64,000 bases of DNA from Candidatus Bathyarchaeota archaeon (GCA_026014815.1 JAOZHP010000110.1:1047-65046); one strand, 5' to 3'; positions 20,868 through 60,417 are shown, counted from the stretch's first letter. Notes: generated by a model not told the origin, from the sequence alone. Numbers and translations are program-made.

Positions 20868-21912
20868 ACTTTTTTACTCCGCGTGTGTGTTCAAGCATCG
20901 TTTCCTCGCAGGCAATGTGGCTTGAACAAGTGTCATATGGATACCTTCAACCGGGTTTAAATACGTCACGGTGAACCCCGGGAGGCGCACACGCACCTCG
21001 GTTTAAAATAGTCATATAATTATCAAGTCGTGGCGAATCCGCGCTTCGCGCGCTCATGAATAAAAAGACTGGTTATTTCTATAGAAATGTCTCCGGTTCC
21101 TTCCATGCGCTGTACATTCTATTCAGCCTCTCTGATATCTCAAGTATCCGCGGCCTCCGAACCCAATCCTAGGTCAGTAGACTAGTGGGGTTCAACCTAT
21201 ACCCCCATTTTTTTCTCGTATAATCGCAGTCCCGACTTGATGGAAAACATCCTTCGTTGAGCAGAGCGCGGAACGTCTCCACGTTAACAAATATGGCCAG
21301 ACCTCCACCAATGTACATGAACTCGGAGAGCAAAAAGCAGGGTTCCCGCGTTGAAGCGCTGAGTACCCGTAAAGGGGTAGCTCACTTCGCTGCTCGTTTC
21401 TCTTTACGCTTTTTTCTTTTTTCTTTTCTTTCCTTCTTGGTCAAAGGTTTCTTCTTAGCACTACGCATACCCAATTCAATCGCCTCATACACTGATTGTA
21501 ATTGATGACACATAAGTCTATCAATCGATGATGACGCTCATCGCCTCAGATGGTGTCCAATCATCTTCAGTCTATGATACAATTGTGGTGAAGTGGATAA
21601 AATATTCAATTGAAAAGGATGGTGATATCATCACGAGATATAAATTTCGAACCTCACCTCCAGCACCATGTTTCTGGTGGAAAAGAGACATACTCACCGG
21701 TTAACATACACGTTTTTGTGCTTACTGGACGGCGTTTGTGAGCACATTTTGATCCAAACGGGGATGTTTTATGGCTTCTTTTAGGTAATAAGGCTTGTAT
21801 TTCCCTTTCCTTAGGTACCCCCCCGCCCCCCTGTTAGCGGCTATTCTTGTTTTAGGATAGGAAAGATGGTGATATCCTCTTTTAATCCATAATTTTTGGG
21901 GGTTTAACCAAG

Positions 21913-22458
21913 TTGCTGATTGTATCCTTGACTAATCTATACATTTATTTTCACTTCACCGAAAGTATATGTGGTGTAAAAATGGGTGGAGAAGTGGAGC
22001 ACAGTACTGCTACAAAGGTGTATGCTCTCTATGGTGCACTATTCAAAGAGATTGCTAAAGAACTAGGAGAAGGGAAAGCTCTGACACTCCATAAGAATGC
22101 GCATGAATACATCGGACTGAATACAGGTAAACAAATTCGAGAACAGATGGGCGACATCGATTATGACCTTGAGACCCTCACCAAGATTCTCCAAAAAGGC
22201 AATCAAAGTATAGGCATTGAATGTCAGATGGTCAAAAGTGCTAATTCGCTTTTACTGAGAAACTTGAGGTGCCCAATGTATGATGGTTACCGATTGGGTG
22301 GATTGGATGATAAGCTAGCTGAGATGCTATGTCAGGTTGGGGCACCTGCTAAACTTTGGACCACACTCAAGCAGTTGAATCCTGATATTATTTACAGCCT
22401 GAATCACTATAGAGATGTACCTGACGAGAGATGTGAAGAAGAAGTCAAACTACCATAA
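21913..22458 (+). CDS. Hypothetical protein. True start is probably the internal Met near 21982.
   Basis: ORF track; AT-rich island context. Confidence 0.35.
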   Translation: MLIVSLTNLYIYFHFTESICGVKMGGEVEHSTATKVYALYGALFKEIAKELGEGKALTLHKNAHEYIGLNTGKQIREQMGDIDYDLETLTKILQKGNQSIGIECQMVKSANSLLLRNLRCPMYDGYRLGGLDDKLAEMLCQVGAPAKLWTTLKQLNPDIIYSLNHYRDVPDERCEEEVKLP

Positions 22459-22500
22459 CTCTTTCTTTATCCATAATTTTGTCCACAATTCACTGTAGAT

Positions 22501-22527
22501 CAGCATCTGAGTGGTTTCAAGAAAAAG
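22501..22527. repeat. Repeat family A copy 1 (CAGCATCTGAGTGGTTTCAAGAAAAAG). Lies at the 3' end of a minus-strand gene; the reverse complement carries an oligo-T tract.
   Basis: Near-identical 27-nt core found 4 times: 22501, 23464, 26338 and 26822. Confidence 0.8.
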
Positions 22528-22590
22528 ATAGGAGACTCATTCAACGTATCAATATTAGAACTTTAACGTCAAAGGGCTTCTCAACGAGCA

Positions 22591-23337
22591 TCATTCATCC
22601 CAACTACCACTCAAGAACTCTAACGCTACACGTTTGATCTCTGAAACATATTTTTTTACAATCGAATGACCTGTATTCGGAGCAATCCACAGATACGAAT
22701 CTGGAATATAATTGTACATATTCACAGGAATAGATACAGGAAAGAAACCATCCCTATCACCATGGATTATCAGCGTCTTAGCCGTAATCGTAGAAAGATA
22801 AGGCGGTGTAAAATTCATATCATCGTAGCTATCTTTCATCTCGTAAAATTGATTCCACCACAGTCTAATCTGCTCATCGCCATGAAGGTGGATACTACGG
22901 TAGTAATTCCATTGATCTTCAGTCAAATCATCAATATTTTCTTGAGCCATTAACTCACGACATTCCTTTGGAAAATGTGGAGAGGCAGAGACAAGTATCA
23001 TAGCCTCAACACGCTTGGGCTCCTGAGTTGCCATGTGGATCAAAGTCATACCTCCTGAGCTCCATCCAACGGCTTTGAATCTCTCAATTTTTAAATGGTC
23101 AAGTAAGGCGTAGATGTCGAGTGCCGATTGTCTGTGTGTGAACTTTTTAGACGGGTTAGTTGAACGTCCGTGTCCCCTCATGTCAGGGATGATTAGCTTG
23201 TAACGTTTTTTGAAGTCTGGGATGAATGGGTTCCACATTTGGTTAGACCATGAAAATCCATGTAGGAGCACAAGCGGTTCACCTTCTCCATGAACTTCAA
23301 AGTACATCTCTATGTCGTTGACCTTAGCCAGAGGCAT
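22591..23337 (-). CDS. Alpha/beta-hydrolase fold protein
   Basis: HGFSWSNQMW and GWSSGG nucleophile-elbow motifs. Confidence 0.75.
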   Translation of the reverse strand: MPLAKVNDIEMYFEVHGEGEPLVLLHGFSWSNQMWNPFIPDFKKRYKLIIPDMRGHGRSTNPSKKFTHRQSALDIYALLDHLKIERFKAVGWSSGGMTLIHMATQEPKRVEAMILVSASPHFPKECRELMAQENIDDLTEDQWNYYRSIHLHGDEQIRLWWNQFYEMKDSYDDMNFTPPYLSTITAKTLIIHGDRDGFFPVSIPVNMYNYIPDSYLWIAPNTGHSIVKKYVSEIKRVALEFLSGSWDE

Positions 23338-23463
23338 CTATTCATCCCTCCAATGAAATTCAGAACTCATCCAAGAATGGTTGAAGACGATTTAACGGTT
23401 TAGAGGGAAGAACACTCAGAACTCAAGACCTGACTGCCCCATACTCTTTTCTTCACTAGAAAC

Positions 23464-23491
23464 AGCATCTGAGTGGTTTCAAGAAAAAAGA
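23464..23491. repeat. Repeat family A copy 2
   Basis: Same core as 22501-22527. Confidence 0.8.
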
Positions 23492-23519
23492 TGGAGAATA
23501 GCTAGGGCTCTCGACTGCT

Positions 23520-23990
23520 TCATTCCTGTAACTGCTGTACCGCCATATCGGGATTGTAGAAGATCTTGAAGACCTTAACCTTCCCATCCTTGAAATCCAC
23601 GATCCAAACCGCCACCATTTCAACCCTCTTCCCAGTCGCAGGAATCCCGGCAACGTCCTCACCAGTATGAACACCAGTCCAGTGAACCTCCGCTACAACC
23701 GTATCACCCTTGGAGATCATGCGATCCACCCGATAGACGCCATCAGACCATATCGAGAAACTTCCCTCGAACAACTCACGTAATCCCTTTTTGTCCCGTT
23801 TCTCTCCTCCAACCGTTTGAACAGTCACATCATCGGTGAAGTACTCCAGCATCTCGTCAAGTTTACGAAGATCTATCAATTCCACAATCTTGCCGATGAT
23901 CTTCTCGTTCTCACTCTCAGTCAATTCTTCATCACTCTTCCCATTCTTGTTGGTATTTGTATAGCCCCCCACCTCGGGGCTAGGTTCCAC
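23520..23990 (-). CDS. SnoaL-like/ester-cyclase (NTF2-fold) protein. The N-terminal 25 codons are encoded by repeat B, so the true start is uncertain.
   Basis: NTF2-like pattern IGKIVELIDLRKLDEMLEYFTDDVTVQ. Confidence 0.55.
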   Translation of the reverse strand: MEPSPEVGGYTNTNKNGKSDEELTESENEKIIGKIVELIDLRKLDEMLEYFTDDVTVQTVGGEKRDKKGLRELFEGSFSIWSDGVYRVDRMISKGDTVVAEVHWTGVHTGEDVAGIPATGKRVEMVAVWIVDFKDGKVKVFKIFYNPDMAVQQLQE

Positions 23991-24048
23991 CAGTTAGCCA
24001 GTGGAACCTTGAATTTCATCTGATCCTAAGAATCTATAATGTTTTGGA
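23957..24048. repeat. Repeat family B copy 1. Contains an 8-bp inverted repeat, GGTTCCAC(N10)GTGGAACC, and lies at the 5' end of a minus-strand gene.
   Basis: Shared 70-90-nt element at 23957, 26226 and 26605, with compensatory variation in the stem. Confidence 0.75.
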
Positions 24049-24164
24049 TAGTTTATCTGTTCTGCGTGGTTTCGATGAAAACCGCCACTTTTCTCGCTGA
24101 GGGCGGGGAGCTCCGAGAAGTGTAGAAAAAGAAGGGAAAAAAGAGCATTGGTTGAGGGTTTAAG

Positions 24165-24974
24165 CTATTTTTTAGATTTCAACCTTGTATTTGATAATGA
24201 ATATAAACTGTTTTTGGTCTCTTTCAGGATTTCTAAGTCTAAATCCATTAGAAATGTGTCACAATCTGCCTTTGTTAATCTGCTTAACCCAATTGCTCTT
24301 GCCCAGTCAATACATTGATCAACTAACGAAGAAAGTTCCTCTCTTTCCTGTTTTATCCTCTCAAGATATTGATTTTCTAATCTCAATTGCATTTTTTCAA
24401 GAATGTCTCTTTCCGTATCTGCTAGCAAGTCTAGTTCATATTCAGATGTAAACCTACGAACATCAACAAGTCGTGCTTTATCCAGACCTCTTTCGAATAG
24501 CCAGTCACCAAATCTATCAACATAAGACGGTAACTCTGCTCGTTCTAGTTCCATTCGTGTCTGCCTTTCTTGTTCTCGTTCTTTTTCCTGCTCCATCGAG
24601 AACAGTGCCCTAGCTTTGCTAATTTTCATCTCGATTTCAAAAGGTAGTCCGAACCTTTCATCGAGTCCTTTTGATCGTAAAAACAAGTCAAACATATTAT
24701 AGGACGGTTGAATTTCTGGGTCTGGAAACTCAGTTTGTATGAAAGTTACATACTCAGAAGCTAAGTCTTGAGGGGAGATCGTCTTAAGATAATCTGGGAC
24801 TTCTCTAGGCGATATTTCAGGATAATATTCTATTTGCCCTGATTCAATATCTTCCTCTGAAGGGATAGCCGTTTGAATTTTTTGTAGAAAATTTACGACC
24901 ATGCAGTTTTCATCGAGCCACATAACACATTGATTGCCTTTACATTCTTCTTTATAGAAGGGACAAAAACTCAC
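24165..24974 (-). CDS. Hypothetical protein with an N-terminal Cys4 zinc-finger-like motif (CPFYKEECKGNQCVMWLDENC), an acidic and coiled-coil middle, and a C-terminal coiled coil. Downstream partner of the nuclease gene.
   Basis: ORF track. Overlaps the upstream gene by 4 nt (ATGA), consistent with an operon. Confidence 0.55.
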   Translation of the reverse strand: MSFCPFYKEECKGNQCVMWLDENCMVVNFLQKIQTAIPSEEDIESGQIEYYPEISPREVPDYLKTISPQDLASEYVTFIQTEFPDPEIQPSYNMFDLFLRSKGLDERFGLPFEIEMKISKARALFSMEQEKEREQERQTRMELERAELPSYVDRFGDWLFERGLDKARLVDVRRFTSEYELDLLADTERDILEKMQLRLENQYLERIKQEREELSSLVDQCIDWARAIGLSRLTKADCDTFLMDLDLEILKETKNSLYSLSNTRLKSKK

Positions 24975-25885
24975 TTTTCTGACACCCTCCCAAGTTCTTC
25001 AAAAGCATTCTCAATCTGAGCAGAAAGTTTTCTCTTGTATTCTTTGACAACAGAGGTTATCTTATCAATGTCTCGAATATTGCGAGTTTTCAGGCTTTCA
25101 GCGGTATTATTTATTGTATCAAGTGATTTGCTGAGTGTTTGAATTTCAGTAATAATATCGTTAACTTTTGTGAGTGTTTTACTCAAATCCTCAGTTGGCT
25201 GATCCTGTATCTTGAGAGTTTCCAACTCGATGAGTTTCTTAACAATATAGAAGGCAAACAAGTGACCAGAATGGTTTAACTCGCTCTCCACCACGAAAAC
25301 TGCGGTTCGGTCCAAGTTATGTTTTAAATTAATGCAACTTGAACACTTGGAAATTCTCGAACGAAGAGATACAAAGATTCCATATTTTGTGTCTCTAACT
25401 TCCATATCTCTCCAGAACTTGTCTACTTGTGAGGTAGGGACTATACCCGTGTAGTCTTTTACTTCAATTAGAACAGGCGTGCTAGAACTGGCGACAGTAG
25501 CTAGAATGTCTGAGTGTCTACCGATTCCTGAAACATCCTCGAAAGAATCATCCATAAAATGTTCTTCAAAACTTTTGAAAACAGCTTCCTCAGTAAATTC
25601 TCCTCGTTTTGCTGGGGTCATTACTGTTGGAACAATGTGCTTTAGTTGTTCTCTAATCGTATTGATGTCTTGTCTGAGTGGTGAAAAGAATGCTTCTACT
25701 GATTCTTTACTAGTACTAATTGAAGCATGTGTAACGACCATATCGCCAAGAATAATATATTTTTCAATTATACTGTCTCGCTGTTCTTCTGGAATAGTTT
25801 CAACAATTTTAATCGCTGTTGGGTCGGTCAATGTAAGCTCAAGTTTTACTTCGTTTTGGGGTTGGTTGAGAATCATTAGTTTCAA
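24971..25885 (-). CDS. PD-(D/E)xK (Mrr/Hjc-like restriction-endonuclease fold) nuclease-domain protein with a C-terminal coiled coil
   Basis: Pattern GEFTEEAV...SDILATV...PVLIEVKDY fits E...D...ExK spacing. Residues about 200-304 are heptad-rich. Confidence 0.55.
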   Translation of the reverse strand: MKLMILNQPQNEVKLELTLTDPTAIKIVETIPEEQRDSIIEKYIILGDMVVTHASISTSKESVEAFFSPLRQDINTIREQLKHIVPTVMTPAKRGEFTEEAVFKSFEEHFMDDSFEDVSGIGRHSDILATVASSSTPVLIEVKDYTGIVPTSQVDKFWRDMEVRDTKYGIFVSLRSRISKCSSCINLKHNLDRTAVFVVESELNHSGHLFAFYIVKKLIELETLKIQDQPTEDLSKTLTKVNDIITEIQTLSKSLDTINNTAESLKTRNIRDIDKITSVVKEYKRKLSAQIENAFEELGRVSEK

Positions 25886-26225
25886 TCAAGAAGTGTAACT
25901 ATTTATTGTTTTTGAAACATCCCCCCACGGGTCGGGGCACCCTATGAATTTTCAAGATAGGGGTATGCCTTCTAGGATGCTGTGCCCCAAGTTACAATGT
26001 TACCCTCCTTAGAGGGGTTCATTAGATAGGGTAGCGTCCTTGGGCGCTGTGCTTTGTAGACTCAGTTTTGCCGTCTTCAGACGGTCACATTAAATCAGCT
26101 GAAGGGGTACCAAGAAGAGGAAAAAATTTTAAATATGTAGGGCTGTTCTGTGTGACGTTACAAATTAGCTACCACGTCTAAAAATTAGCTAATTAGATAA
26201 TCGACTAATACCCCTTTCTTAGTTC

Positions 26226-26310
26226 TCCCCACTTTGGAGCTAGGGCTCCACCAGTTAGCCAGTAGAACCTTGAGTGACATCTTATCCTTTACGTCTATAA
26301 CGTTTTGGAC
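26226..26310. repeat. Repeat family B copy 2
   Basis: Homologous to 23957-24048, including the TCTATAAYGTTTTGGA tail. Confidence 0.75.
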
Positions 26311-26337
26311 GTTCAAAGATGAATTCAAACTAGAAAA

Positions 26338-26363
26338 AGCATCTGAGTGGACTCAAGAAAAAG
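26338..26363. repeat. Repeat family A copy 3 (variant GGACTC for GGTTTC)
   Basis: Same core. Confidence 0.75.
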
Positions 26364-26396
26364 AGGGGGAATCAGCTAGTTCGGTTTTTCGGATGA

Positions 26397-26579
26397 CTAC
26401 TCGTCTTTAAAAGCAGCTTTAACTTTCGCTACCAGTTCGGGCGTGAGTTCAATCTCTGGATGTACGTTTTTTGCGTGTTCAGCAATAAGTTCCATGAGAC
26501 CTTCCTCGGTTTCGCTAGAGGCTGACCAATCACAGTCCACACCTACATCTCTACAAGCATATGTTTTTACCATCTTCAT
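26397..26579 (-). CDS. DUF1059-like small metal-binding protein
   Basis: 60 aa; MKMVKTYACRDVGVDCDWSASSETEEGLMELIAEHAKNVH matches the DUF1059 signature. Confidence 0.6.
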   Translation of the reverse strand: MKMVKTYACRDVGVDCDWSASSETEEGLMELIAEHAKNVHPEIELTPELVAKVKAAFKDE

Positions 26580-26604
26580 TTCTCCTTGTTCTTTCTTTCA
26601 CTTC

Positions 26605-26672
26605 TTGGTAATTGTATAGCTCCCAACTCCGGAGCTAGGACTCCACCAGCTAACCAGCAGAACCTTGAGTGT
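26605..26672. repeat. Repeat family B copy 3 (acts as the 5' leader of the DUF1059 gene)
   Basis: Homologous to the other B copies. An in-frame TGA upstream of the ATG shows it is untranslated here. Confidence 0.7.
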
Positions 26673-26821
26673 CAATAGACTCAAATAATATTTAACAACT
26701 TGTAAAGGATTTAATGATTTTATTTTCTTATTGTATATAATATTCGTGAAATCCAGCGTTTTGATAACGAGCTTCGACAATATTCAAATAACTATCTCCT
26801 CGACTTTTATCCTACTAAATT

Positions 26822-26850
26822 CAGCATCTGAGTGGTTTCAAGAAAAAAAG
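26822..26850. repeat. Repeat family A copy 4, followed by a tRNA T-arm-like fragment (GGGAGGGACTCGAACCC, 26850-26867)
   Basis: Same core. The adjacent segment is the reverse complement of a GGGTTCGAGTCCC T-arm. Confidence 0.7.
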
Positions 26851-26932
26851 GGAGGGACTCGAACCCTACTATATGTGGTGATATCACCCGATATCTCCTT
26901 TTTTTATATATCGTATGTAGGACCATGAAGAA

Positions 26933-26993
26933 TTTTTTATCTCAATATGACAAATTACTTGAAGCCAAAAAAAATATGGTGCAGGGGGTGGGA
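26933..26993. repeat. Distal att-like direct repeat: a copy of the 3' end of tRNA-Leu(CAG) plus about 40 nt of its 3' flank
   Basis: TTTTTATCTCAATATGACAAATTACTTGAAGCCAAAAAAAATATGGTGCAGGGGGTGGGA here, against TTTTTTCTCAATATTACAGGTTACTTGAAGCGAAAATAATGGTGCGGAGGGTGGGA at 29545-29605. Confidence 0.7.
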
Positions 26994-27034
26994 TGCCCAC
27001 ACAAAAATACTAGTAAAAACCGTGTGTGAGCATA

Positions 27035-27568
27035 TTATAATGGGAAGAGTTCTCTTTCTAATTCGTTCATCTTCTCCCTGAATCGCACATTAAAATCGCT
27101 AACCAATTCGAGATACGTCGCAAACCACGCCTCAAATACTATAACAACTTCATGAAGCCGCTTTGCCTCGTCACTATTTTTTTCTTCATCAGAGAGATTG
27201 TTCCACTCATCAAGAATTGATTCAATAACATCTAGCTTGCCAGTGACAAATCGTTCAGATATGTCTACGGTCCTCTTGAATTCGTCAAAGAAGGATTTTG
27301 CTCGTTCACCATACAACTGGGTACGGGAGCCTGGTTTAGACTCTTTTCTGATCAAGCCCCGTTGCTCTAAATTTGATAAATACCTTGATATTTGTGATCT
27401 TGAGTATCCGGTTTTTTCTGAGATCTTTTCTTGAGTAAGTGGTTCAGGAGATAATACGATCATAGAGTAGATACAGGCTATCGTTGGCTCGGTTCCCCTG
27501 AATCTGACTATGTCCTCAAGAACCCCTAGGAACGCCTCATGTAGTTTTTCGTACCCGTTGTTTGTCAT
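27035..27568 (-). CDS. Winged-helix (MarR/TrmB-like) transcriptional regulator
   Basis: HTH segment ISEKTGYSRSQISRYLSNLEQRGLIRK. Confidence 0.6.
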   Translation of the reverse strand: MTNNGYEKLHEAFLGVLEDIVRFRGTEPTIACIYSMIVLSPEPLTQEKISEKTGYSRSQISRYLSNLEQRGLIRKESKPGSRTQLYGERAKSFFDEFKRTVDISERFVTGKLDVIESILDEWNNLSDEEKNSDEAKRLHEVVIVFEAWFATYLELVSDFNVRFREKMNELERELFPL

Positions 27569-27682
27569 TGTTATCTTCTCTTATTGTTTTATAGAAAGTT
27601 CCATAGTGCTACACTAGAAAAGTGAGGATATTATAGTTACTTTCTCTACCATATATAATGTAAAACCTATTTGAAAGCTTTG

Positions 27683-28606
27683 TTATTCTTTCTTTAATTC
27701 TTTTCTCTCTATTTTATTTAATATAACGCCACATGATTTACACTTATAATCAACATCATAAACCTTCGAAACTACATCATTACTTTCATCTTCTTTAATT
27801 AATTTTGATTCAAAATATTCCAAAGACCCAATATTATTACAAACCTCACATCTAGTTCTTTCACTTATTTCTAATATAGACAATGGAATTAACCCCAAAA
27901 TAATTGATATACCCAAATATGTAGGATATCCTGTTAATATATCTCTATTGAAATAAATGGCATAAAAAATAGGGGTTTCAAATAATACAAATAAAACCAC
28001 CATTATAATTTTTTCTTTTATTAGCGGAGTTGTTTGATTATCATATACATATTGTGAATATTTTTCAATTAAACTACTCACAACATTAAACCATGAAGAC
28101 CCCTGCGGAAATTCATCTATTGATAGTGGCGAATTTGAAGTAATATCCTGAATAAATGTAACTTTTGATACCATATCAAACCATTGATCTCTGTGTTTTT
28201 TTAATTCTGAAGGAGTGTATTTTCTTCCTTTGGGATGATTTGGGTTATATGAACCCACATCGGCATGACAATCAAAACAGAGAGGAATCCCATTATCCTC
28301 ATCGTTTCCTCCATCAGGTTCTATATGATGAATTTCGATTTTTGTACCCTTGAAAGTTCTACAAAGACAACAACGCCTATTACTTTTTACTAATAAAGAT
28401 TCAGCTACAATTGGTGGAAATGGTTTAGGAGGCATTGAAATTACCTTTAATTTTAGTATTATTTTAGGGTTGTTAAGAATTTGGACAGATTTTGTAAGGA
28501 CCATTGCCCCCCCCGCTAATTTCTTCGGGTGAAACTCAGAAGGTGGGGGGGCTGCGAAATTAATTATACTTGTATGTGTAACTGAAAGTGATATTGATGG
28601 AGCCAA
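27683..28606 (-). CDS. HNH endonuclease domain fused to two TM helices and a C-terminal zinc ribbon. True start is probably the Met near 28435.
   Basis: HNH motif CCLCRTF...IEIHHIEPDGGNDEDNGIPLCFDCH. Hydrophobic helices IIMVVLFVLF and GISIILGLIPL. C-terminal CEVCN...CKSCG. Confidence 0.55.
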   Translation of the reverse strand: MAPSISLSVTHTSIINFAAPPPSEFHPKKLAGGAMVLTKSVQILNNPKIILKLKVISMPPKPFPPIVAESLLVKSNRRCCLCRTFKGTKIEIHHIEPDGGNDEDNGIPLCFDCHADVGSYNPNHPKGRKYTPSELKKHRDQWFDMVSKVTFIQDITSNSPLSIDEFPQGSSWFNVVSSLIEKYSQYVYDNQTTPLIKEKIIMVVLFVLFETPIFYAIYFNRDILTGYPTYLGISIILGLIPLSILEISERTRCEVCNNIGSLEYFESKLIKEDESNDVVSKVYDVDYKCKSCGVILNKIERKELKKE

Positions 28607-28896
28607 ATCTAAGAGGGAGAGTCGAAGCGTTTCTTGATAGATTATTAACTGATGAAATATTTTCTAATGTAATGCGAGGAATTACTACACTTAAAAACGA
28701 GTGGATGTTTGAGTCAATTGATAGCTTCTATTTAGGAGTAATATTCGGATTAACAACAGAATATATCTTACGTGATTATTCTGACCAAGGAAAAGATATC
28801 GAAGACTGGGAGAAGTTATCAAATGAAACAGTCTCTGTTCTTACTAGAAGATTATCAGAGATTAGAAGACAATTCGAACTACACATCAATAAGTAA
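28588..28896 (+). CDS. Hypothetical protein
   Basis: ORF track only. Confidence 0.3.
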   Translation: MILMEPNLRGRVEAFLDRLLTDEIFSNVMRGITTLKNEWMFESIDSFYLGVIFGLTTEYILRDYSDQGKDIEDWEKLSNETVSVLTRRLSEIRRQFELHINK

Positions 28897-29009
28897 TAAT
28901 AACACCATACTTTAACATCCAAAGCCAACATTCAATTATTTTTTAAATCTGGCAAACCCTCTTAGAAGTTTTACATAAAAAGTTTTACGAAATAAATTCT
29001 ATGAATAAA

Positions 29010-29294
29010 TTATTTGATTTTAACATTTTTCATGTTTCTCAGTTCATCAGCAAATCCATCTATTTGTTCAATTATCTTCTCAATATATTCTCTGATGTAA
29101 TCTATTCCCTGAATAGGCGGAAGTTCATCAACTGTCTCGATTGTAAACGAAAACTTCCCTGACTCAATGAGAGCGTCAATCTCAGCAGCTCTTTCTGGAT
29201 CAATATACGTTAGTTCATCATAAGCTAATTTAAGTGATTCAAGAGAAATATCTACTAACCTAGATAATCTCTCAATCAAATGGTTCTCAGTCAT
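29010..29294 (-). CDS. Hypothetical acidic protein
   Basis: ORF track only. Confidence 0.3.
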   Translation of the reverse strand: MTENHLIERLSRLVDISLESLKLAYDELTYIDPERAAEIDALIESGKFSFTIETVDELPPIQGIDYIREYIEKIIEQIDGFADELRNMKNVKIK

Positions 29295-29544
29295 CTCATT
29301 TCCTCTTTCTAACTATCTTGCAATCAGCATAGTCTGATACATATTCATATCTTTTACTTAATGCATTTATGTAATCATTCAAATCGTATATACCTTAACC
29401 AGATAATTATCATCAGGCTCCTCATCCAATAAATGAATGTAAACTATAGTATTTTGGGTATTGACATGTTAACCTACTATTTCGCTACCAGAGAACGGGT
29501 AGCTCTTTTTTTTCAAGATTCCCAGATACAAAGTACAAAAAATA

Positions 29545-29605
29545 TTTTTTTCTCAATATTACAGGTTACTTGAAGCGAAAATAATGGTGCGGAGGGTGGG
29601 ACTCG
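29545..29605. repeat. Proximal att-like direct repeat (the 3' end of tRNA-Leu plus its flank)
   Basis: See 26933-26993. Confidence 0.7.
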
Positions 29606-29670
29606 AACCCACGAAGGACTAGTCCATCAGGACCTGAACCTGACCCCTTTGACCACTTGGGAACCCCCGC
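29585..29670 (-). tRNA. tRNA-Leu (anticodon CAG), encoded CCA, long variable arm
   Basis: Hand-folded cloverleaf GCGGGGG/CCUCCGC acceptor, anticodon loop UUCAGGU, variable stem GGAC/GUCC, T-arm GUGGGUUCGAGUCCCAC. Confidence 0.9.
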
Positions 29671-55675: not shown

Positions 55676-56599
55676 TTATCCGGTTCCTTTGATGCAAGTT
55701 ACCCCCATGACCACGGGGTGATACTCCATCCCATGGAAACCTACCTCACTTAAACGGTTCATGACTCCCTGCTGTAGCCTGACACCCCGATACTTAGAAC
55801 GAGGCTCACCTGTATAATGAAACAACGAGCCACCCGGCTTCAATACTTTGAAAAGTTTCTCATAGAACTCTTTTCCGTACAAGTTCCCTGCCTTTCTATG
55901 GCGAGGAGGGTCATGGATCACGTAGTCAAAAAACTCGTCTGGTAAACCATTAATGACGGTGAAACTATCTCCGAGCATCTTGTGTATCGCTTGATTTGAG
56001 AACAAATCACTGGACCACGGGTTCATCTGGGCTATTCTAAAAACGGATGGCTCTATTTCAATTGTCACAATGACCTCGGCTCCATTGTTCAACGCTTCTA
56101 TTGAGGTGTATCCGAGTCCCATGCAGGTATCCAGAACCTTTCCCCCGTGTAATCCAATGATCTGAAGCTTGGTCTGGGTGTCAATATCAGGCGTTGTATC
56201 TTTTGTCCTATGCATCCTGATTCCGTCTATCTCCAAGGTTGGAGCACCGGCGGTTGGCACAAGTTTATAAAAATGTTTTCCCGCTACAGCGACCTGAAAA
56301 ACGCCTTCCTCTGATATGAAGAATGCTGCGTTCTTTTTTTGCGCCACTTTTCCGAGGGTTTCATGATCGATGAATTCTCCCGTTTCGAATATTACGCCTT
56401 GATTTGTCTGTTTTACGGTTGTTTCGGTTAATCCCAGGTCAGTGGATATTATTGTTTTTCCTTCTATTAGCGCGTTTGCCGTGTCCGCGGTGAGTATGGG
56501 CGGGAGTTTACGTGACATCTCTTGCTTTGTTTCATTCATTTCCCACGTATCTAAAGGTTTTCGAGGGGAAAGACAGTGTAGAGACGGCTTTCTATTCAT
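55676..56599 (-). CDS. Class I SAM-dependent methyltransferase with a DPP motif
   Basis: VLDTCMGLGYTS (motif I) and VIHDPPRH (DPPx catalytic motif). Confidence 0.6.
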   Translation of the reverse strand: MNRKPSLHCLSPRKPLDTWEMNETKQEMSRKLPPILTADTANALIEGKTIISTDLGLTETTVKQTNQGVIFETGEFIDHETLGKVAQKKNAAFFISEEGVFQVAVAGKHFYKLVPTAGAPTLEIDGIRMHRTKDTTPDIDTQTKLQIIGLHGGKVLDTCMGLGYTSIEALNNGAEVIVTIEIEPSVFRIAQMNPWSSDLFSNQAIHKMLGDSFTVINGLPDEFFDYVIHDPPRHRKAGNLYGKEFYEKLFKVLKPGGSLFHYTGEPRSKYRGVRLQQGVMNRLSEVGFHGMEYHPVVMGVTCIKGTG

Positions 56600-56753
56600 G
56601 GGATTCCAGTGTTTGAGACTCCGATTTTTACCGGAAAAATGAATCTTCAGAACAGATTGTTAATACATATCGTACCTGTTAACTTGCATTATAGTATCTG
56701 AGTCATTTTAACTACGGACTATCAACTGGGAAAAGTGTTTTCGGAAGCCTTAT

Positions 56754-57056
56754 ATGGAGATTTTTTCCGTTTCCCACCGAATGCCAATGGCATCAGACGA
56801 TAAGCATAACGACCTCAAAAGCATCGTGAAGGACGTAATCGACCAGATCCTGCCTCCCAGCGAAGTCGAGCTGGAAACTATTAAGGCTGAGGTTTGGGGT
56901 GACCTTTCCGCTCTCTACTACAAGTACGAGGACGAGGAGCAGAAGAAAGCATTCAGAGAGGTCATGTACGATATTTGTGAGAGGATAAGTCAGGGGAAAT
57001 GGGAATCGGTGTACCGGAAGCTTTACCGTGTAGAGCAGAGGGAAAAGGTATTCTAG
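56754..57056 (+). CDS. Hypothetical protein
   Basis: ORF track only. Confidence 0.3.
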   Translation: MEIFSVSHRMPMASDDKHNDLKSIVKDVIDQILPPSEVELETIKAEVWGDLSALYYKYEDEEQKKAFREVMYDICERISQGKWESVYRKLYRVEQREKVF

Positions 57057-57841
57057 TCTCAGTTCGGGGATAACTTCCATTAACACTTATTCTGTCACTT
57101 GAATAGAGTCTTCTCGGTTACACATGTAAAGGTTTAAAAATTAATGAACATAGCTAACTACGGTAAGACTCGGGTATTTCATTGCGTTTCCCTACCATGA
57201 AACGAGTCTTACCACTTTTTCTCGGTAATTACTGAAGAATGATATGAGTAAATTAAGAAAGTGTAACCACAGAAAATATGGCGTATCATGATCCATGATA
57301 CCAGTGTTTAGTAAAAAACCGACTTAAGTTAGTAGATTGTTTTCCCATGGGGGTATAAGTTTGGATGTTATAATTCTATCATTATTTTTGAGTATAAAAA
57401 AAGGATAAGATGTCGAATGCAGAATAGGGCTCCTCCCCATCTACCTCAGCTTCTTGTTGCATCTTGGGCAACGAGCTGGTGGATTTATGATGAAGGTTCT
57501 CAGCCCTCTTGCAAACCACACATATCCGCACTTTGTACAGATCATAGTTCTGCTCCATTTGGGTAGTCTCATATTTTTCTACCACCACCAAGGGCTTGTA
57601 GCCCTAGACTTCCCAAACAGAGTACTATGATGTATCTATCTGTTAGAAACTACTACAAATAAAGATATCGTTTTCTCCGAATCGTCCTATTTAGATAGGA
57701 TTGTCGTATGGTCATTTTATAAGGAAGAAAGAGGATTTCAGGATAGGGCTTCCTGAAAGGTACTGCTCCTTGGAACCCAAGCTAAGACGGCTGGATACCG
57801 CCCTGCTTTGAGGAGCCTTGTACCACCCTATTCTCCTGTCC

Positions 57842-58507
57842 TCATTCCTCCTCGTCGTTCGAGTCTACTTTAATCTGTGATTTTAACAACTCAAGGAAAC
57901 CTTTTGCATATTCGACCCCTTCGATTGTGTAGGGTATTGTTTGGTTATATGGTCCAACTTGTATGTTGATTGACCATCCACCCGCACTTGGTGTGCGGGT
58001 TGGGGTCATTGCAGGTGTATTATCGGGGGCCATAACTGGTTCCTGTGTCTTAGGGAGATGATTTATATCGCCCAGATAGGCTCTCCGCACATTCTCGGCG
58101 TGTTTTTGAGCATCCAAGGGATCCAAACCTGTAATCTTCTGTAATTGCACCCAAAAATTACTTTCAGGTGGATCAGAACCAAAACGGCTATGAAGTTCTT
58201 TCCACAGTGGCACTTTTAAAATTGCATCGGTAATAGCTCTTTCTTTTTCTTCATCTGTGCCATAAGTAAGTGCCTCCGCTAACGATGTTAGTTGAAGGGC
58301 TCTAGGCTCCATTAAACCATATAATCTGAAATCTGCTTTCTTGTACTTCCAAGCACCACTATTAGGAGACTTATGACCACACAGTTGGGCGGCTGCGTCC
58401 TCATTCACAATCTCTTCTAATCTGTATGCTTCATAGAGTTGTTTTAACCAACCGTGCAACTTGGGAAATAGTCTCATTTCCGGTATCGAGTAGCTTCCTA
58501 CTTTCAT
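57842..58507 (-). CDS. Hypothetical protein
   Basis: ORF track only. Confidence 0.35.
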   Translation of the reverse strand: MKVGSYSIPEMRLFPKLHGWLKQLYEAYRLEEIVNEDAAAQLCGHKSPNSGAWKYKKADFRLYGLMEPRALQLTSLAEALTYGTDEEKERAITDAILKVPLWKELHSRFGSDPPESNFWVQLQKITGLDPLDAQKHAENVRRAYLGDINHLPKTQEPVMAPDNTPAMTPTRTPSAGGWSINIQVGPYNQTIPYTIEGVEYAKGFLELLKSQIKVDSNDEEE

Positions 58508-58820
58508 ACTATCACTACCAGTACGGTACGAGTATGGTACTGTGTACGATACTTAAAACGTTTTTGATCCGTTGACAGTAAATTGGTCAGATTTAGTTAA
58601 CAGACGATAAAGTTGAGGTCGTTTCAAGGGATGAGGATGACGGCTATGAAGAATCGAACCGCAAATGGTACACCTATACATACAGGAGCCTCCTCCCCAA
58701 GCGTGAGAATTCTAGGAAGTTTAAGGAGTCTGGCAAACTAGAATTACTATTTGGTTTAAGAAATTCTGCATAAAGTATATATTGTACTCATATGGTATCA
58801 GCCGTGGAGTGGAGGATCGA

Positions 58821-58891
58821 CCTCCTGGGGTGTAATGGTAGCACAACTGGCCGTGGACCAGTTAGAGTGGGTTCGATCCCCACCAATTTGA
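58821..58891 (+). tRNA. tRNA-like gene 1. D-arm GUGU/GCAC, anticodon stem ACUGG/CCAGU with loop CCGUGGA (GUG, His-like), T-arm GUGGGUUCGAUCCCCAC. The acceptor stem was not closed by hand folding.
   Basis: Canonical GGTTCGATCC T-loop and cloverleaf arms read directly from the sequence. Confidence 0.35.
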
Positions 58892-58962
58892 GCAGTGATA
58901 GCTTAATGGGAAAGCGCCGAGTTGAGTTCTCGGTGTCGGGGGTTCGATTCCCCCTCACTTTT
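58892..58962 (+). tRNA. tRNA-like gene 2. Acceptor GCAGUGA/UCACUUU with one mismatch, D-arm GCUU/AAGC, anticodon stem CCGAG/CUCGG with loop UUGAGUU (GAG), T-arm GGGGGUUCGAUUCCCCC.
   Basis: Hand fold. The anticodon and variable-arm type are inconsistent (GAG reads Leu but the variable arm is short), so identity is unresolved. Confidence 0.35.
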
Positions 58963-59189
58963 ACCTACAAAATGTTGCTCTCGAAACCTTTTTTATTACC
59001 ATTATTATAAAATAAATTGGTTCATGGAAGGCGGGTTAATCCCTTAATTCGCTGAAATTGAGCCAAGGTGGCCAACGTGGGTTGGTTTCCTCCTGCCTAT
59101 ATGTGCCGAAAGGAGCTTATGGGGGCTGGTGGGCTTGGGCTCATCGGCTGGGGGTGTGGACGTGGGTTCACACAGATCCCCCAGAAAAT

Positions 59190-59687
59190 TTACTCACAAG
59201 CTTTTTGATATAATATTTCAACTACCTGTCTACAGTTAGAGACAAGCTCATTGACCTCATCTACATCCATTAATTCATGCGGAGCATATCCATCGTGAGG
59301 ATACTTCTCATGTGCGATCATGCCGGTAATACAGTCAATTATACTTGCTCTGGTGTCTGGGTCAGCTACGTCCGTGTGGGATATTCTTTCAATAACGACC
59401 GATGGAATGTCTGTTGATTCAACCCAACCATTTTCTATAGCGTATTCCCACAGATCTAATATACTATGCCCCATTCTTCCTCCAACAAATTGTCTAGGTA
59501 TATTACCTTCCTTAGCTTCGATTAAGCCCTTTAAAGCAAGTTCTACTGAATGTTTGGCTGAATAATCAGCAACTTCATAATTATGATATTGTTCTCGTTC
59601 AGCACTTTCATTGAACCTAAAAGAGGCAGTGAACCAAGCTCTCCAATTCTCCCTTGTTTGAGGCGGTGGCCCTCCTGAATATACCAT
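59190..59687 (-). CDS. HEPN-domain protein
   Basis: Helical pattern with an R-x-x-H-like motif (GGRMGHS). Accessory context. Confidence 0.45.
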   Translation of the reverse strand: MVYSGGPPPQTRENWRAWFTASFRFNESAEREQYHNYEVADYSAKHSVELALKGLIEAKEGNIPRQFVGGRMGHSILDLWEYAIENGWVESTDIPSVVIERISHTDVADPDTRASIIDCITGMIAHEKYPHDGYAPHELMDVDEVNELVSNCRQVVEILYQKACE

Positions 59688-59973
59688 GTTATCTTAAAAG
59701 TACGATGAAACTAAAATTATTTACGAGTTAGATACCTTAAAATGAATGTATAACATACCGTTCAATTATGCAATATTGGATATTACCAGCTGTAGCAGGA
59801 TTCGCAGTGCATTAGTACTTATCCAATATAAGTCTAGGGCAAACACCGTTTTACTGAGTTTTATATCAGTGGTTTGTGGAGCATTAGGATCGATCATTGT
59901 GGGGGTGAGCTCAGATCAAATATTCGTATTCCTCATCGCGTTTGGGCTGTTGTTTTTTGTCTCATGGGTTATT

Positions 59974-60417
59974 CTACCACGGGGGCATAATGTACTCAAA
60001 GTACAGGACTTTCCCATATTGAGTGTCCTCGTAACCTGCCGCTGATATATTGTGGAGACTCGCTCGGGTAACAACGCTGAGTAATTCGTCTCTCGTCGAG
60101 ACCTTGAGGTTCCCGACCAGCAGTTGTAGTTTCACACCTTCAATGTTTATGCCCTTGATCTCAATTACTTTATCAAGACGTTCGATAAAATCTGCGATGT
60201 ATTCTCCCTCAAATGTATATTTGGTTCCTATACCTCTGATTCGTTCGATGCCCTGTTTTACTTCGTCGTTCATCTGGTTCAAGGGTTGACTGGTATGGTT
60301 GGAATTAACCTTTACTGGTACCGGTTGTGGTGCTGGGTTACCAGAGACGCTGTGGATAGTACCGCCATTATCCATGAGAGGATGTTGACTGCGTACCAAA
60401 AGTCTCGTGCCCACCAC
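59974..60417 (-). CDS. Hypothetical protein. True start is probably the internal Met near 60273.
   Basis: ORF track; overlaps the next ORF in another frame. Confidence 0.3.
   Translation of the reverse strand: MVGTRLLVRSQHPLMDNGGTIHSVSGNPAPQPVPVKVNSNHTSQPLNQMNDEVKQGIERIRGIGTKYTFEGEYIADFIERLDKVIEIKGINIEGVKLQLLVGNLKVSTRDELLSVVTRASLHNISAAGYEDTQYGKVLYFEYIMPPW

Follow-up and report, generated by a model that had tools for sequence, protein, structure and literature searches.

A probable decayed and composite integration hot-spot at tRNA-Leu(CAG) in a Bathyarchaeia archaeon, with a cassette array joined at an invariant 22-nt core

We analysed a 64-kb stretch of DNA from a Bathyarchaeia archaeon (the window), in which an AT-rich island lies between tbp and tRNA-Leu(CAG), and compared it with loci and contigs from relatives and metagenomes (designated by L-numbers). 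We propose that the island probably marks an integration hot-spot, now decayed and composite, at the 3′ end of tRNA-Leu(CAG), with two or more layers, and that it contains cassettes exchanged by recombination inside a conserved core. Next to the tRNA, the island retains the remnant of an integrase whose relatives stand beside tRNA genes in sibling elements, and its left 5 kb is an array of cassettes joined at an invariant 22-nt sequence and reshuffled between genomes.

Outside 21-30 kb, the G+C content (GC) of the window is 0.496 ± 0.032 (1-kb windows), against a mean of 0.387 for the island. The tRNA-proximal segment (26934-29584, hereafter layer 1) has a GC of 0.332, and the array beyond it (about 21913-26900, layer 2) one of 40%. 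Because GC at third codon positions (GC3) in island genes (0.19-0.42, with the exception of a SnoaL-like gene at 0.57) departs from that of the core flanking genes (0.56-0.66) and differs from one island gene to the next, the composition of the island is foreign and heterogeneous gene to gene. An earlier note on this DNA had described a sharp drop in GC and an island spanning 20870-29670; the drop stands, but the left edge does not, as the 125 nt upstream of tbp (20868 to about 20995) are 82-88% identical in nucleotide sequence to tbp upstream regions in relatives and therefore belong to the core genome. The island consequently starts between 20996 and 21913. Synteny cannot set this boundary more closely, since relatives whose TBP is 91-92% identical have other neighbours on either side of tbp, and the 0.9-kb stretch that contains it (20996-21912, no strand; GC of about 0.44) yielded no convincing open reading frame (ORF), homology or attachment-site (att) copy. 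The right boundary is tRNA-Leu(CAG) itself (29585-29670, minus strand, with encoded CCA; ARAGORN, and Rfam tRNA at 50.3 bits), the presumed integration target, which lies directly after gcvH and beside the island as previously noted.

Parts of this tRNA recur in the island. The first att-like repeat (29545-29612, minus strand) comprises the tRNA 3′ end from T-arm to CCA together with 40 nt of 3′ flank, and the second (26934-27001, minus strand), a diverged tRNA-Leu 3′ end with a copy of the 40-nt flank, closes a 2.6-kb segment of 33% GC. The two are 82% identical over 60 nt (26934-26993 versus 29545-29601; E=1.7e-8 in the island self-comparison, 3e-10 with the tRNA as query), and thus 18% diverged. 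Copy 2 extends to about 27001, keeping both strands of the T-stem, the acceptor strand and CCA, with the T-loop deleted. The duplication of the tRNA 3′ end and about 40 nt of flank reported earlier is accordingly real and reaches somewhat further than described, but it is not the classic signature it was taken for, since the repeats of sibling elements lack the flank. A third piece, the T-arm fragment previously placed at 26850-26867, lies at 26849-26868 (minus strand), where it matches tRNA-Leu positions 61-78 at 17 of 18 nucleotides and gives a weak tRNA-like Rfam hit; it is fused directly to the first junction core of the array (26844).

The statement that no integrase is present did not survive a tblastn search with the 315-aa ORF found next to tRNA-Leu(CAG) in a relative (L002), a tyrosine recombinase (PF00589, E=8e-14). 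On the minus strand, this query was 62% identical to two stretches in different frames, 29468-29391 and 29385-29299, which reveal the frameshifted C-terminal ~57 codons of a Xer-like tyrosine integrase at 29299-29468 (minus strand; stop codon 29296-29298), 117 nt from the end of the tRNA. The remnant corresponds to residues 259-315 of the L002 protein, about 260 N-terminal codons being missing, and reads HVNTQNTIVYIHLLDEEPDDNYLVKV / DLNDYINALSKRYEYVSDYADCKIVRKRK up to its stop codon; it has the GH...Y catalytic box (HVNTQNTIVYIHL around the catalytic Tyr) and the tail of its family, and is non-functional as it stands. At E≤1e-20 the family (PF00589) numbers 465 proteins, their annotation being Bathyarchaeota integrase, and it has a tail of 45 residues beyond the catalytic Tyr of the pattern ...GFEYVSDY..K[IV][VL]RKRK. 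Its members score 67-93 bits against the archaeal XerA model (XerA_Arch, cutoff 220) and 47-59 bits against the integron integrase model (TIGR02249, cutoff 265), which by sequence assigns the family to the Xer/IntI branch, under every curated threshold.

Comparison with relatives indicates that the tRNA is a point of repeated change. The block HIBADH-like/orf148/orf74/gcvT/gcvH/tRNA-Leu(CAG) is kept in at least 14 relatives, the nearest gcvT relatives in a gcvT genome scan being Bathyarchaeia metagenome-assembled genomes (MAGs) at 75-80% amino acid identity. Proteins identical to the TBP and the HNH protein of the window carry annotations in a Candidatus Bathyarchaeota MAG. Synteny runs to the tRNA and then breaks at once, and the content that follows is never shared with the window and mostly not among the relatives themselves: a pilin/FlaI/FlaJ cluster in L008 and L012, other genes in each of L003, L013 and L017, and in L002 the integrase, then an hsdM fragment and then a pilus ATPase. 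Just after the L002 integrase (L002:12584-12615) there is also an inverted copy of tRNA-Leu(CAG) positions 3-34 at 97% identity, which is not the geometry expected of attR. Four independent MAG contigs (L007, L010, L011 and L022) stop at or within 9 nt of the tRNA-Leu(CAG) 3′ end, as might be expected of assemblies if populations of several Bathyarchaeia lineages vary at this site.

The same integrase family occurs directly 3′ of other tRNA genes, namely tRNA-Pro(GGG) (L174 and L081/L181) and tRNA-Val (L180), with an N-terminal fragment 3′ of tRNA-Met (L160), further full-length members in L072, L127 and L179, and a C-terminal fragment in L077. AT-rich DNA follows these tRNA-integrase pairs; in L181, for instance, GC drops from 0.61-0.65 to about 0.3 at the tRNA. 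Two siblings are bounded by repeats. The 9.3-kb element of L174 consists of tRNA-Pro, integrase, AT-rich cargo and a perfect 26-nt copy of tRNA positions 52-77, and the 12.7-kb element of L081/L181 has the same layout with a 42-nt copy of the tRNA 3′ end (90%, L081). Beyond their far repeats, L174 and L081 have the same chromosomal flank; a single site thus holds a different element in each of these related strains. Cassette arrays sit within both repeat-bounded elements. Together with the integrase remnant beside the tRNA, these sibling loci lend support to the earlier reading of a degraded or composite island acquired at a tRNA integration site.

Layer 1 may thus be read as the remnant of an integrative element (26934-29584, 33% GC) from a family common in Bathyarchaeia, which would have arrived by integrase-mediated integration. 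A Xer-like integrase encoded directly 3′ of the tRNA would have catalysed recombination between the chromosomal tRNA and a copy of its 3′ end carried by the element; at a later stage about 260 integrase codons would have been deleted and the remainder frameshifted, leaving the HNH/membrane gene and winged-helix (wHTH) regulator described below as cargo, and the diverged tRNA 3′-end repeat with its 40-nt flank to mark the far end. The locus resembles known tRNA-targeting integrative elements in having a tyrosine integrase directly 3′ of a tRNA, AT-rich cargo, and tandem accretion and decay at a hot-spot, and the siblings also share with them a far end marked by a direct repeat of the 3′ part of the tRNA. 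Unlike such elements, the window retains only 57 frameshifted integrase codons, a repeat reaching 40 nt beyond the tRNA and an older part without distal repeat, and the integrase is Xer-like with its 45-residue tail past the catalytic Tyr ending GFEYVSDY..RKRK.

Simple integration at the tRNA falls short for the left 5 kb of the island because this part is a shuffled cassette array. It is structured by two repeat families, a junction core (modA) and a leader (modB), which are both confined to the island and went unremarked in the earlier note. The modA core is an invariant 22-mer, TTCTTGAAACCACTCAGATGCT, present in four copies in the window, all in the island and none elsewhere in the 64 kb, where 0.02 would be expected by chance. 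Copy 1 (26823-26844, minus strand) stands directly after the T-arm fragment and is followed by a structured 5′ leader (modB, 26602-26704, minus strand; hairpin 1, hairpin 2 with AGCTCC..GGAGCT, and ATACAATTACCAAGAA) and a DUF1059 ORF (26397-26579, minus strand; Pfam E=7e-19). Copy 2, a GAGTCC variant (26338-26359, minus strand), lies 38 nt past the DUF1059 stop and precedes a second modB copy (26225-26309, minus strand) that includes the promoter-like CCAAAACGTTATAGA. After about 340 nt free of ORFs come two overlapping ORFs (24165-25885, minus strand; GC3 0.30-0.32), one of 304 aa with a weak Mrr-like nuclease core and one of 269 aa without family match. A degenerate junction element with a third modB copy (23947-24140, minus strand; core-like sequence at 24061-24078, modB at 23947-24048) then leads into the start of a SnoaL-like ORF (23520-23990, minus strand; Pfam E=3e-18), which likely begins at the GTG at 23972 with the N-terminus MGGYTNTNK. 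Copy 3 (23464-23485, minus strand) is found 35 nt past the SnoaL stop and copy 4 (22502-22523, minus strand) 68 nt past the stop of an alpha/beta-hydrolase ORF (22591-23337, minus strand; Pfam E=6e-29), and the array closes with a reverse-oriented cassette carrying an ATC_hydrolase-like ORF (21913-22458, plus strand; Pfam E=2e-6). The ORF-free stretch (25886-26224), between the second leader copy and the Mrr-like/269-aa pair, is locally higher in GC and shows short GC hairpins by eye; on neither strand does 25886-26215 fold with better energy than its shuffles (z = -0.6 and -1.1), and searches gave no homologue.

Genes of this array recur as cassettes elsewhere. The ATC_hydrolase-like, SnoaL-like and DUF1059 ORFs, and more distantly the 269-aa ORF, are found beside other neighbours at 56-87% amino acid identity: the DUF1059 ORF at 87% in a cassette of L122, with further copies in L094, L104 and L112; the SnoaL-like ORF at 80.5% in L168; the 269-aa ORF at 56% in L059; and the ATC_hydrolase-like ORF at 86% in L169 and 82% in L105, with nucleotide homology spanning 22534 to 22015. 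None of the core genes of the window recurs as a cassette in contigs with the 22-mer. The 22-mer itself is present in at least 120 metagenome contigs, mostly from marine or estuarine sediment and several with two to eight copies, and is confined to AT-rich islands; it is absent from 652 kb of other Bathyarchaeia loci, and neither repeat motif has a match in IMG/VR, which was consulted for a viral origin.

Gene order is reshuffled at this core. Among the contigs listed, 176 cores are co-oriented within their contigs and three opposed; a same-strand ORF stop precedes the core by a median of 33 nt, and by no more than 80 nt in 82% of cases, and a convergent ORF ends within 80 nt at about half of the cores. 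Successive cores are never closer than 452 nt, their distances cluster at 450-580 nt, and unit sizes are 450-1000 nt. When contig pairs at 75-96% identity are compared, 40 share the upstream unit only and 44 the downstream unit only. Only 11 alignments cross a core, all of them overlaps of the same strain at no less than 97% identity. The left flank of the core goes with the upstream unit and the right flank with the downstream one, the change-over falling between positions -3 and +24, within the invariant block.

The cargo of the 22-mer loci, as surveyed in 237 ORFs, includes NTF2-like (SnoaL/DUF4440), DUF3303, SRPBCC, ATC_hydrolase, DUF1059, PNPOx, GNAT, alpha/beta hydrolase, DUF4760 and cupin proteins; no transposase or recombinase family is recurrent among them. 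DUF4760 membrane proteins are by far the commonest mid-size product (23 of 122 ORFs in L055-L174; e.g., L110:1303-1902, L114:7576-8109 and L077:4394-4972), mostly encoded on the strand opposite the junction core and directly downstream of it.

The units share a fixed anatomy. Each begins with the core, next to which stands a right arm, most often GATTCTAGTGAAGAAAAGAGTATGGGG, or else a variant with a promoter-like sequence (..AAATAGTTAAATA..); there follow hairpin 1, whose stem is variable (AAGGTTC...GAACC), hairpin 2 (AGCTCC-GAGGTG-GGAGCT), ATACAAGTACCAAGAA, a purine-rich Shine-Dalgarno-like box and the ORF; about 20 nt later CCCATCTTTT leads into the next core. A TATA-like box in each unit is a predicted promoter. 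In 41 aligned copies, the leader read as RNA forms hairpin 2 as AGCUCC-GAGGUG-GGAGCU followed by AUACAAGUACCAAGAA, with 95% of cells paired compared with 34-57% in slid controls, a covariation score above all 500 shuffles and eight double compensations (U-A to C-G) in hairpin 2. Because G-U pairs are frequent on the sense strand, the leader appears to act as an RNA structure. In the Rfam search only the tRNA passed, the leader and the junction element being without match (other hits E≥1), and we consider the two-hairpin leader a candidate new cis-regulatory RNA. A reading of modB as a small ORF was rejected, as the frame is not kept between copies and the substitutions are G-U compatible on the sense strand. 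Cassette ORFs can nonetheless take their start and initial codons from the 3′ part of modB. Unrelated cassette proteins open almost alike (MGGYTNTK, MGSYTSTK and MGSYISTK; the GTG at 23972 in the window, L072:5374, L081:8678, L114 and L077:3980), and in the DUF1059 copy the same 3′ stretch of the leader forms a short upstream ORF overlapping the DUF1059 start.

With the usual arms, the junction forms a long imperfect hairpin, a palindrome of about 60 nt with the core in its loop (consensus fold -24.4 kcal/mol as RNA and -11.5 kcal/mol as DNA). The loop is the most conserved part and the stems are the least. Copies with shuffled flanks fold less well than real ones (p=3e-7), but real copies have no advantage over chimeras of arms from different copies, which fits with the arms being supplied by two different units. 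Runs of T on both strands of the palindrome, directly past the ORF stops, probably terminate transcription. The right arm was also considered as a marker of a convergent downstream gene; only a weak trend emerged from noisy ORF calls, and we make no such claim.

Layer 2 is accordingly a cassette array in which each unit, a predicted autonomous transcription unit, consists of a TATA-like promoter box, the two-hairpin leader, in most cases a single small ORF, and a C-rich/T-run end forming half of the imperfect palindrome. Neighbouring cassettes are joined at the invariant 22-nt core, and would be swapped between genomes and reordered by recombination inside it, possibly in a site-specific manner. 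Since the array lies beyond the second att-like repeat and starts at a T-arm fused to a core, it may be what a similar but earlier element left behind when a subsequent integration displaced it away from the tRNA. As a broader and clearly more tentative proposal, Bathyarchaeia might possess a form of cassette exchange independent of integrons, in which self-expressed cassettes undergo site-specific recombination in the 22-nt core, presented in the loop of a palindrome whose arms come from both cassettes, while the arrays ride on tRNA-integrating elements and the recombinase belongs to the Xer-like family or acts in trans.

Several observations weigh against parts of the hot-spot reading. No tbp-tRNA-gcvH empty site was found in the gcvT genome scan or in a TBP homologue search with three context look-ups, and acquisition is therefore inferred from composition and comparison rather than directly seen. 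A comparison of the window with the tRNA gave no distal att copy at the left end of the island (no significant match; the best is 75% over 24 nt, E of about 1). The att-like repeat of the window takes in 40 nt of tRNA flank where sibling repeats end at the tRNA end, so that the tRNA-integration reading requires an extra assumption; the simplest account may be an attP region with captured flank or a local duplication. With regard to the cassettes, no recombinase is specifically tied to the 22-mer, no clean pair of filled and empty cassette sites was found (the sole candidate, L112 versus the window, is not clean), the palindrome arms show no copy-specific covariation, and the 27-nt shared block could also support homologous recombination. 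The integrase family is enriched in 22-mer loci (six in 425 kb versus one in 652 kb). As a dedicated cassette recombinase, however, it is weakened by two independently sampled members (L179 and L180) that lack a 22-mer within 10 kb and by the variable orientation of the integrase relative to the array; we therefore take it to be the tRNA-integration enzyme of the carriers and only a candidate for cassette exchange.

Other explanations of the region may be considered, beginning with its origin. If the region were ancestral, AT-rich and fast-evolving, and the tRNA 3′-end repeat a local tandem duplication or pseudo-tRNA, the failure to find an empty site would be expected, as would a repeat that includes the 3′ flank, unlike a simple attL/attR pair, and that is 18% diverged with a deleted T-loop. 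Such an origin is nonetheless highly improbable given the integrase remnant between tRNA and repeat, siblings with the same tRNA-integrase-AT-rich layout and bona fide att repeats, a GC3 well below that of the core genes (0.19-0.42 versus 0.56-0.66) and varying from gene to gene, island genes whose closest relatives stand in unrelated contexts on other contigs, and relatives that carry wholly different genes after the tRNA. The cassettes themselves could be explained without any dedicated exchange if the palindrome were a bidirectional terminator or 3′-untranslated-region element and the leader a shared regulatory 5′ untranslated region of co-regulated small genes, with the shuffling due to ordinary rearrangement and homologous recombination. 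The T-runs on both strands just past the ORF stops, the convergent ORFs ending near about half of the cores, the promoter-like box and leader of every unit, the lack of a dedicated recombinase and the arms without copy-by-copy covariation all suit this explanation, which we nevertheless regard as rather unlikely. A terminator has no need of an invariant 22-nt loop, yet the loop is exact in at least 120 contigs where flanking genes are only 75-90% identical; a co-orientation of 176:3 is unexpected for a symmetric terminator with ORFs pointing both ways; and the element is absent from the 55 kb of core genome in the window as well as from the 652 kb of other Bathyarchaeia loci, being found in AT-rich islands only.

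Mobile repeats and integrons provide two further comparisons. The 22-mer element shares with repetitive extragenic palindromes (REPs), bacterial interspersed mosaic elements (BIMEs) and miniature inverted-repeat transposable elements (MITEs) its shortness, its many extragenic copies behind genes and its imperfect palindrome of about 60 nt with the folding energies given above, and co-orientation is also typical of single-strand transposition; it could in principle be a non-autonomous repeat of this kind, inserting behind genes and moved in trans by a REP-associated tyrosine transposase (RAYT) or an IS200/IS605-type enzyme. We find this improbable, as insertion into a conserved gene order would keep both sides shared, whereas one-sided sharing prevails by 84 to 11 and neighbours are not kept across the 22-mer. 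The flanks are moreover linked to the upstream and downstream genes respectively, the orientation to the upstream ORF is strict, the element is island-confined, and no RAYT, no recurrent transposase among the 237 ORFs and no target-site duplication was seen. Likeness to integrons is more extensive. As in integrons and clusters of attC sites lacking integron integrases (CALINs), including those reported in Thermoproteota MAGs (Ghaly et al. 2022; PMC9668308), co-oriented imperfect palindromes with bulged bases separate mostly single small ORFs in units of 450-1000 nt with reshuffled order, the cargo of small enzymes and DUFs is integron-typical (NTF2-like, GNAT, cupin), the junction is highly similar within a lineage, as are Vibrio VCRs, and the neighbouring integrase family falls in the Xer/IntI branch. 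That the array is a fragment of a canonical integron (CALIN) with the palindromes as attC sites is, even so, very unlikely indeed: the RYYYAAC...GTTRRRY pair occurs in none of 163 junction segments on either strand (2.2 in shuffles), conservation peaks in the loop and is lowest in the stems, the reverse of attC, and the exchange point lies inside the invariant central core rather than at the stem base. Furthermore, the cassettes have their own predicted promoters and leaders and no common promoter Pc, and there is no IntI, the nearby integrases scoring far under the integron-integrase threshold (47-59 bits versus 265) with inconsistent linkage and orientation. Detection of the published archaeal integrons relied on a canonical model of attC (Ghaly et al. 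2022; PMC9668308).

Within the library searched, no paper describes these junction or cassette elements. Acinetobacter plasmids offer a partial parallel in their pdif modules, in which Xer recombination sites flank genes that occur in varied contexts; pdif sites are 28-bp dyads (11-6-11) in alternating orientation. The Bathyarchaeia cassettes are similar in being discrete modules in varied contexts, always bounded by a short conserved site of putative recombinase type, and in having Xer-family enzymes nearby. They differ in the co-orientation of the 22-mer, in which only a weak TCTTGA/TCAGA dyad around AACCAC can be made out by eye.

Besides the integrase tail, layer 1 contains four ORFs. Reading away from the tRNA, 117 nt precede the integrase tail, which is followed in turn by ORFs of 94 and 102 aa, the genes for an HNH/membrane protein and a wHTH regulator, and finally the repeat. 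The 94-aa ORF (29010-29294, minus strand) begins 2 nt past the stop of the integrase remnant and, like the 102-aa ORF (28588-28896, plus strand), has no family match. The HNH-motif protein with a C-terminal membrane region (27683-28606, minus strand; GC3 0.19) matches Pfam HNH at E=3e-4, just below the cutoff, and its start is probably internal to the called ORF because homologues measure 224-256 aa. The regulator (27035-27568, minus strand) is a winged-helix protein of the MarR/TrmB-like type according to Pfam. Thus the alpha/beta hydrolase, SnoaL, DUF1059, nuclease, HNH and regulator genes named in the earlier note all hold in Pfam, the nuclease and HNH weakly. Full-length homologues of the HNH/membrane protein adjoin TIR-domain proteins and Cas1 gene fragments in L175-L178, and its HNH N-domain is elsewhere joined to many other C-terminal domains, such as HEAT repeats; this suggests an uncharacterised gene family of the defence-island type. 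PADLOC gave no match for the HNH/membrane protein or for the Mrr-like, 269-aa, 94-aa and 102-aa ORFs, and only generic helix-turn-helix matches for the wHTH regulator.

Two further observations concern the surroundings of the island. The conservation upstream of tbp (82-88% in nucleotide sequence) is unusually strong for non-coding DNA, the TBP of the relatives having only about 91% protein identity, and the region contains an inverted repeat (20888-20906/20910-20928); it may reflect autoregulation of tbp or a leader. A second low-GC patch (56000-60000; 0.41-0.44) surrounds tRNA-Leu(GAG) (58891-58965) and holds small hypothetical ORFs, with no match to the integrase family and no 22-mer.

A tRNA-adjacent island is on its own routine, and the interest of this one lies in its cassette content. 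Its cassettes are part of a set that is widespread in Bathyarchaeia and has a constant architecture, an invariant junction and a gene order that differs between genomes through reshuffling at that junction. Should the junction prove to be a site of recombination, it would represent a second, non-integron route to cassette arrays, in an archaeal group that ranks among the most abundant in anoxic sediments. Each cassette would then bring its own expression signals, which would help to explain how small accessory enzymes are exchanged among uncultured archaea, and the 22-mer could serve as a sequence tag for this mobile gene pool in metagenomes, by PCR or read mining, much as attC does for integrons.

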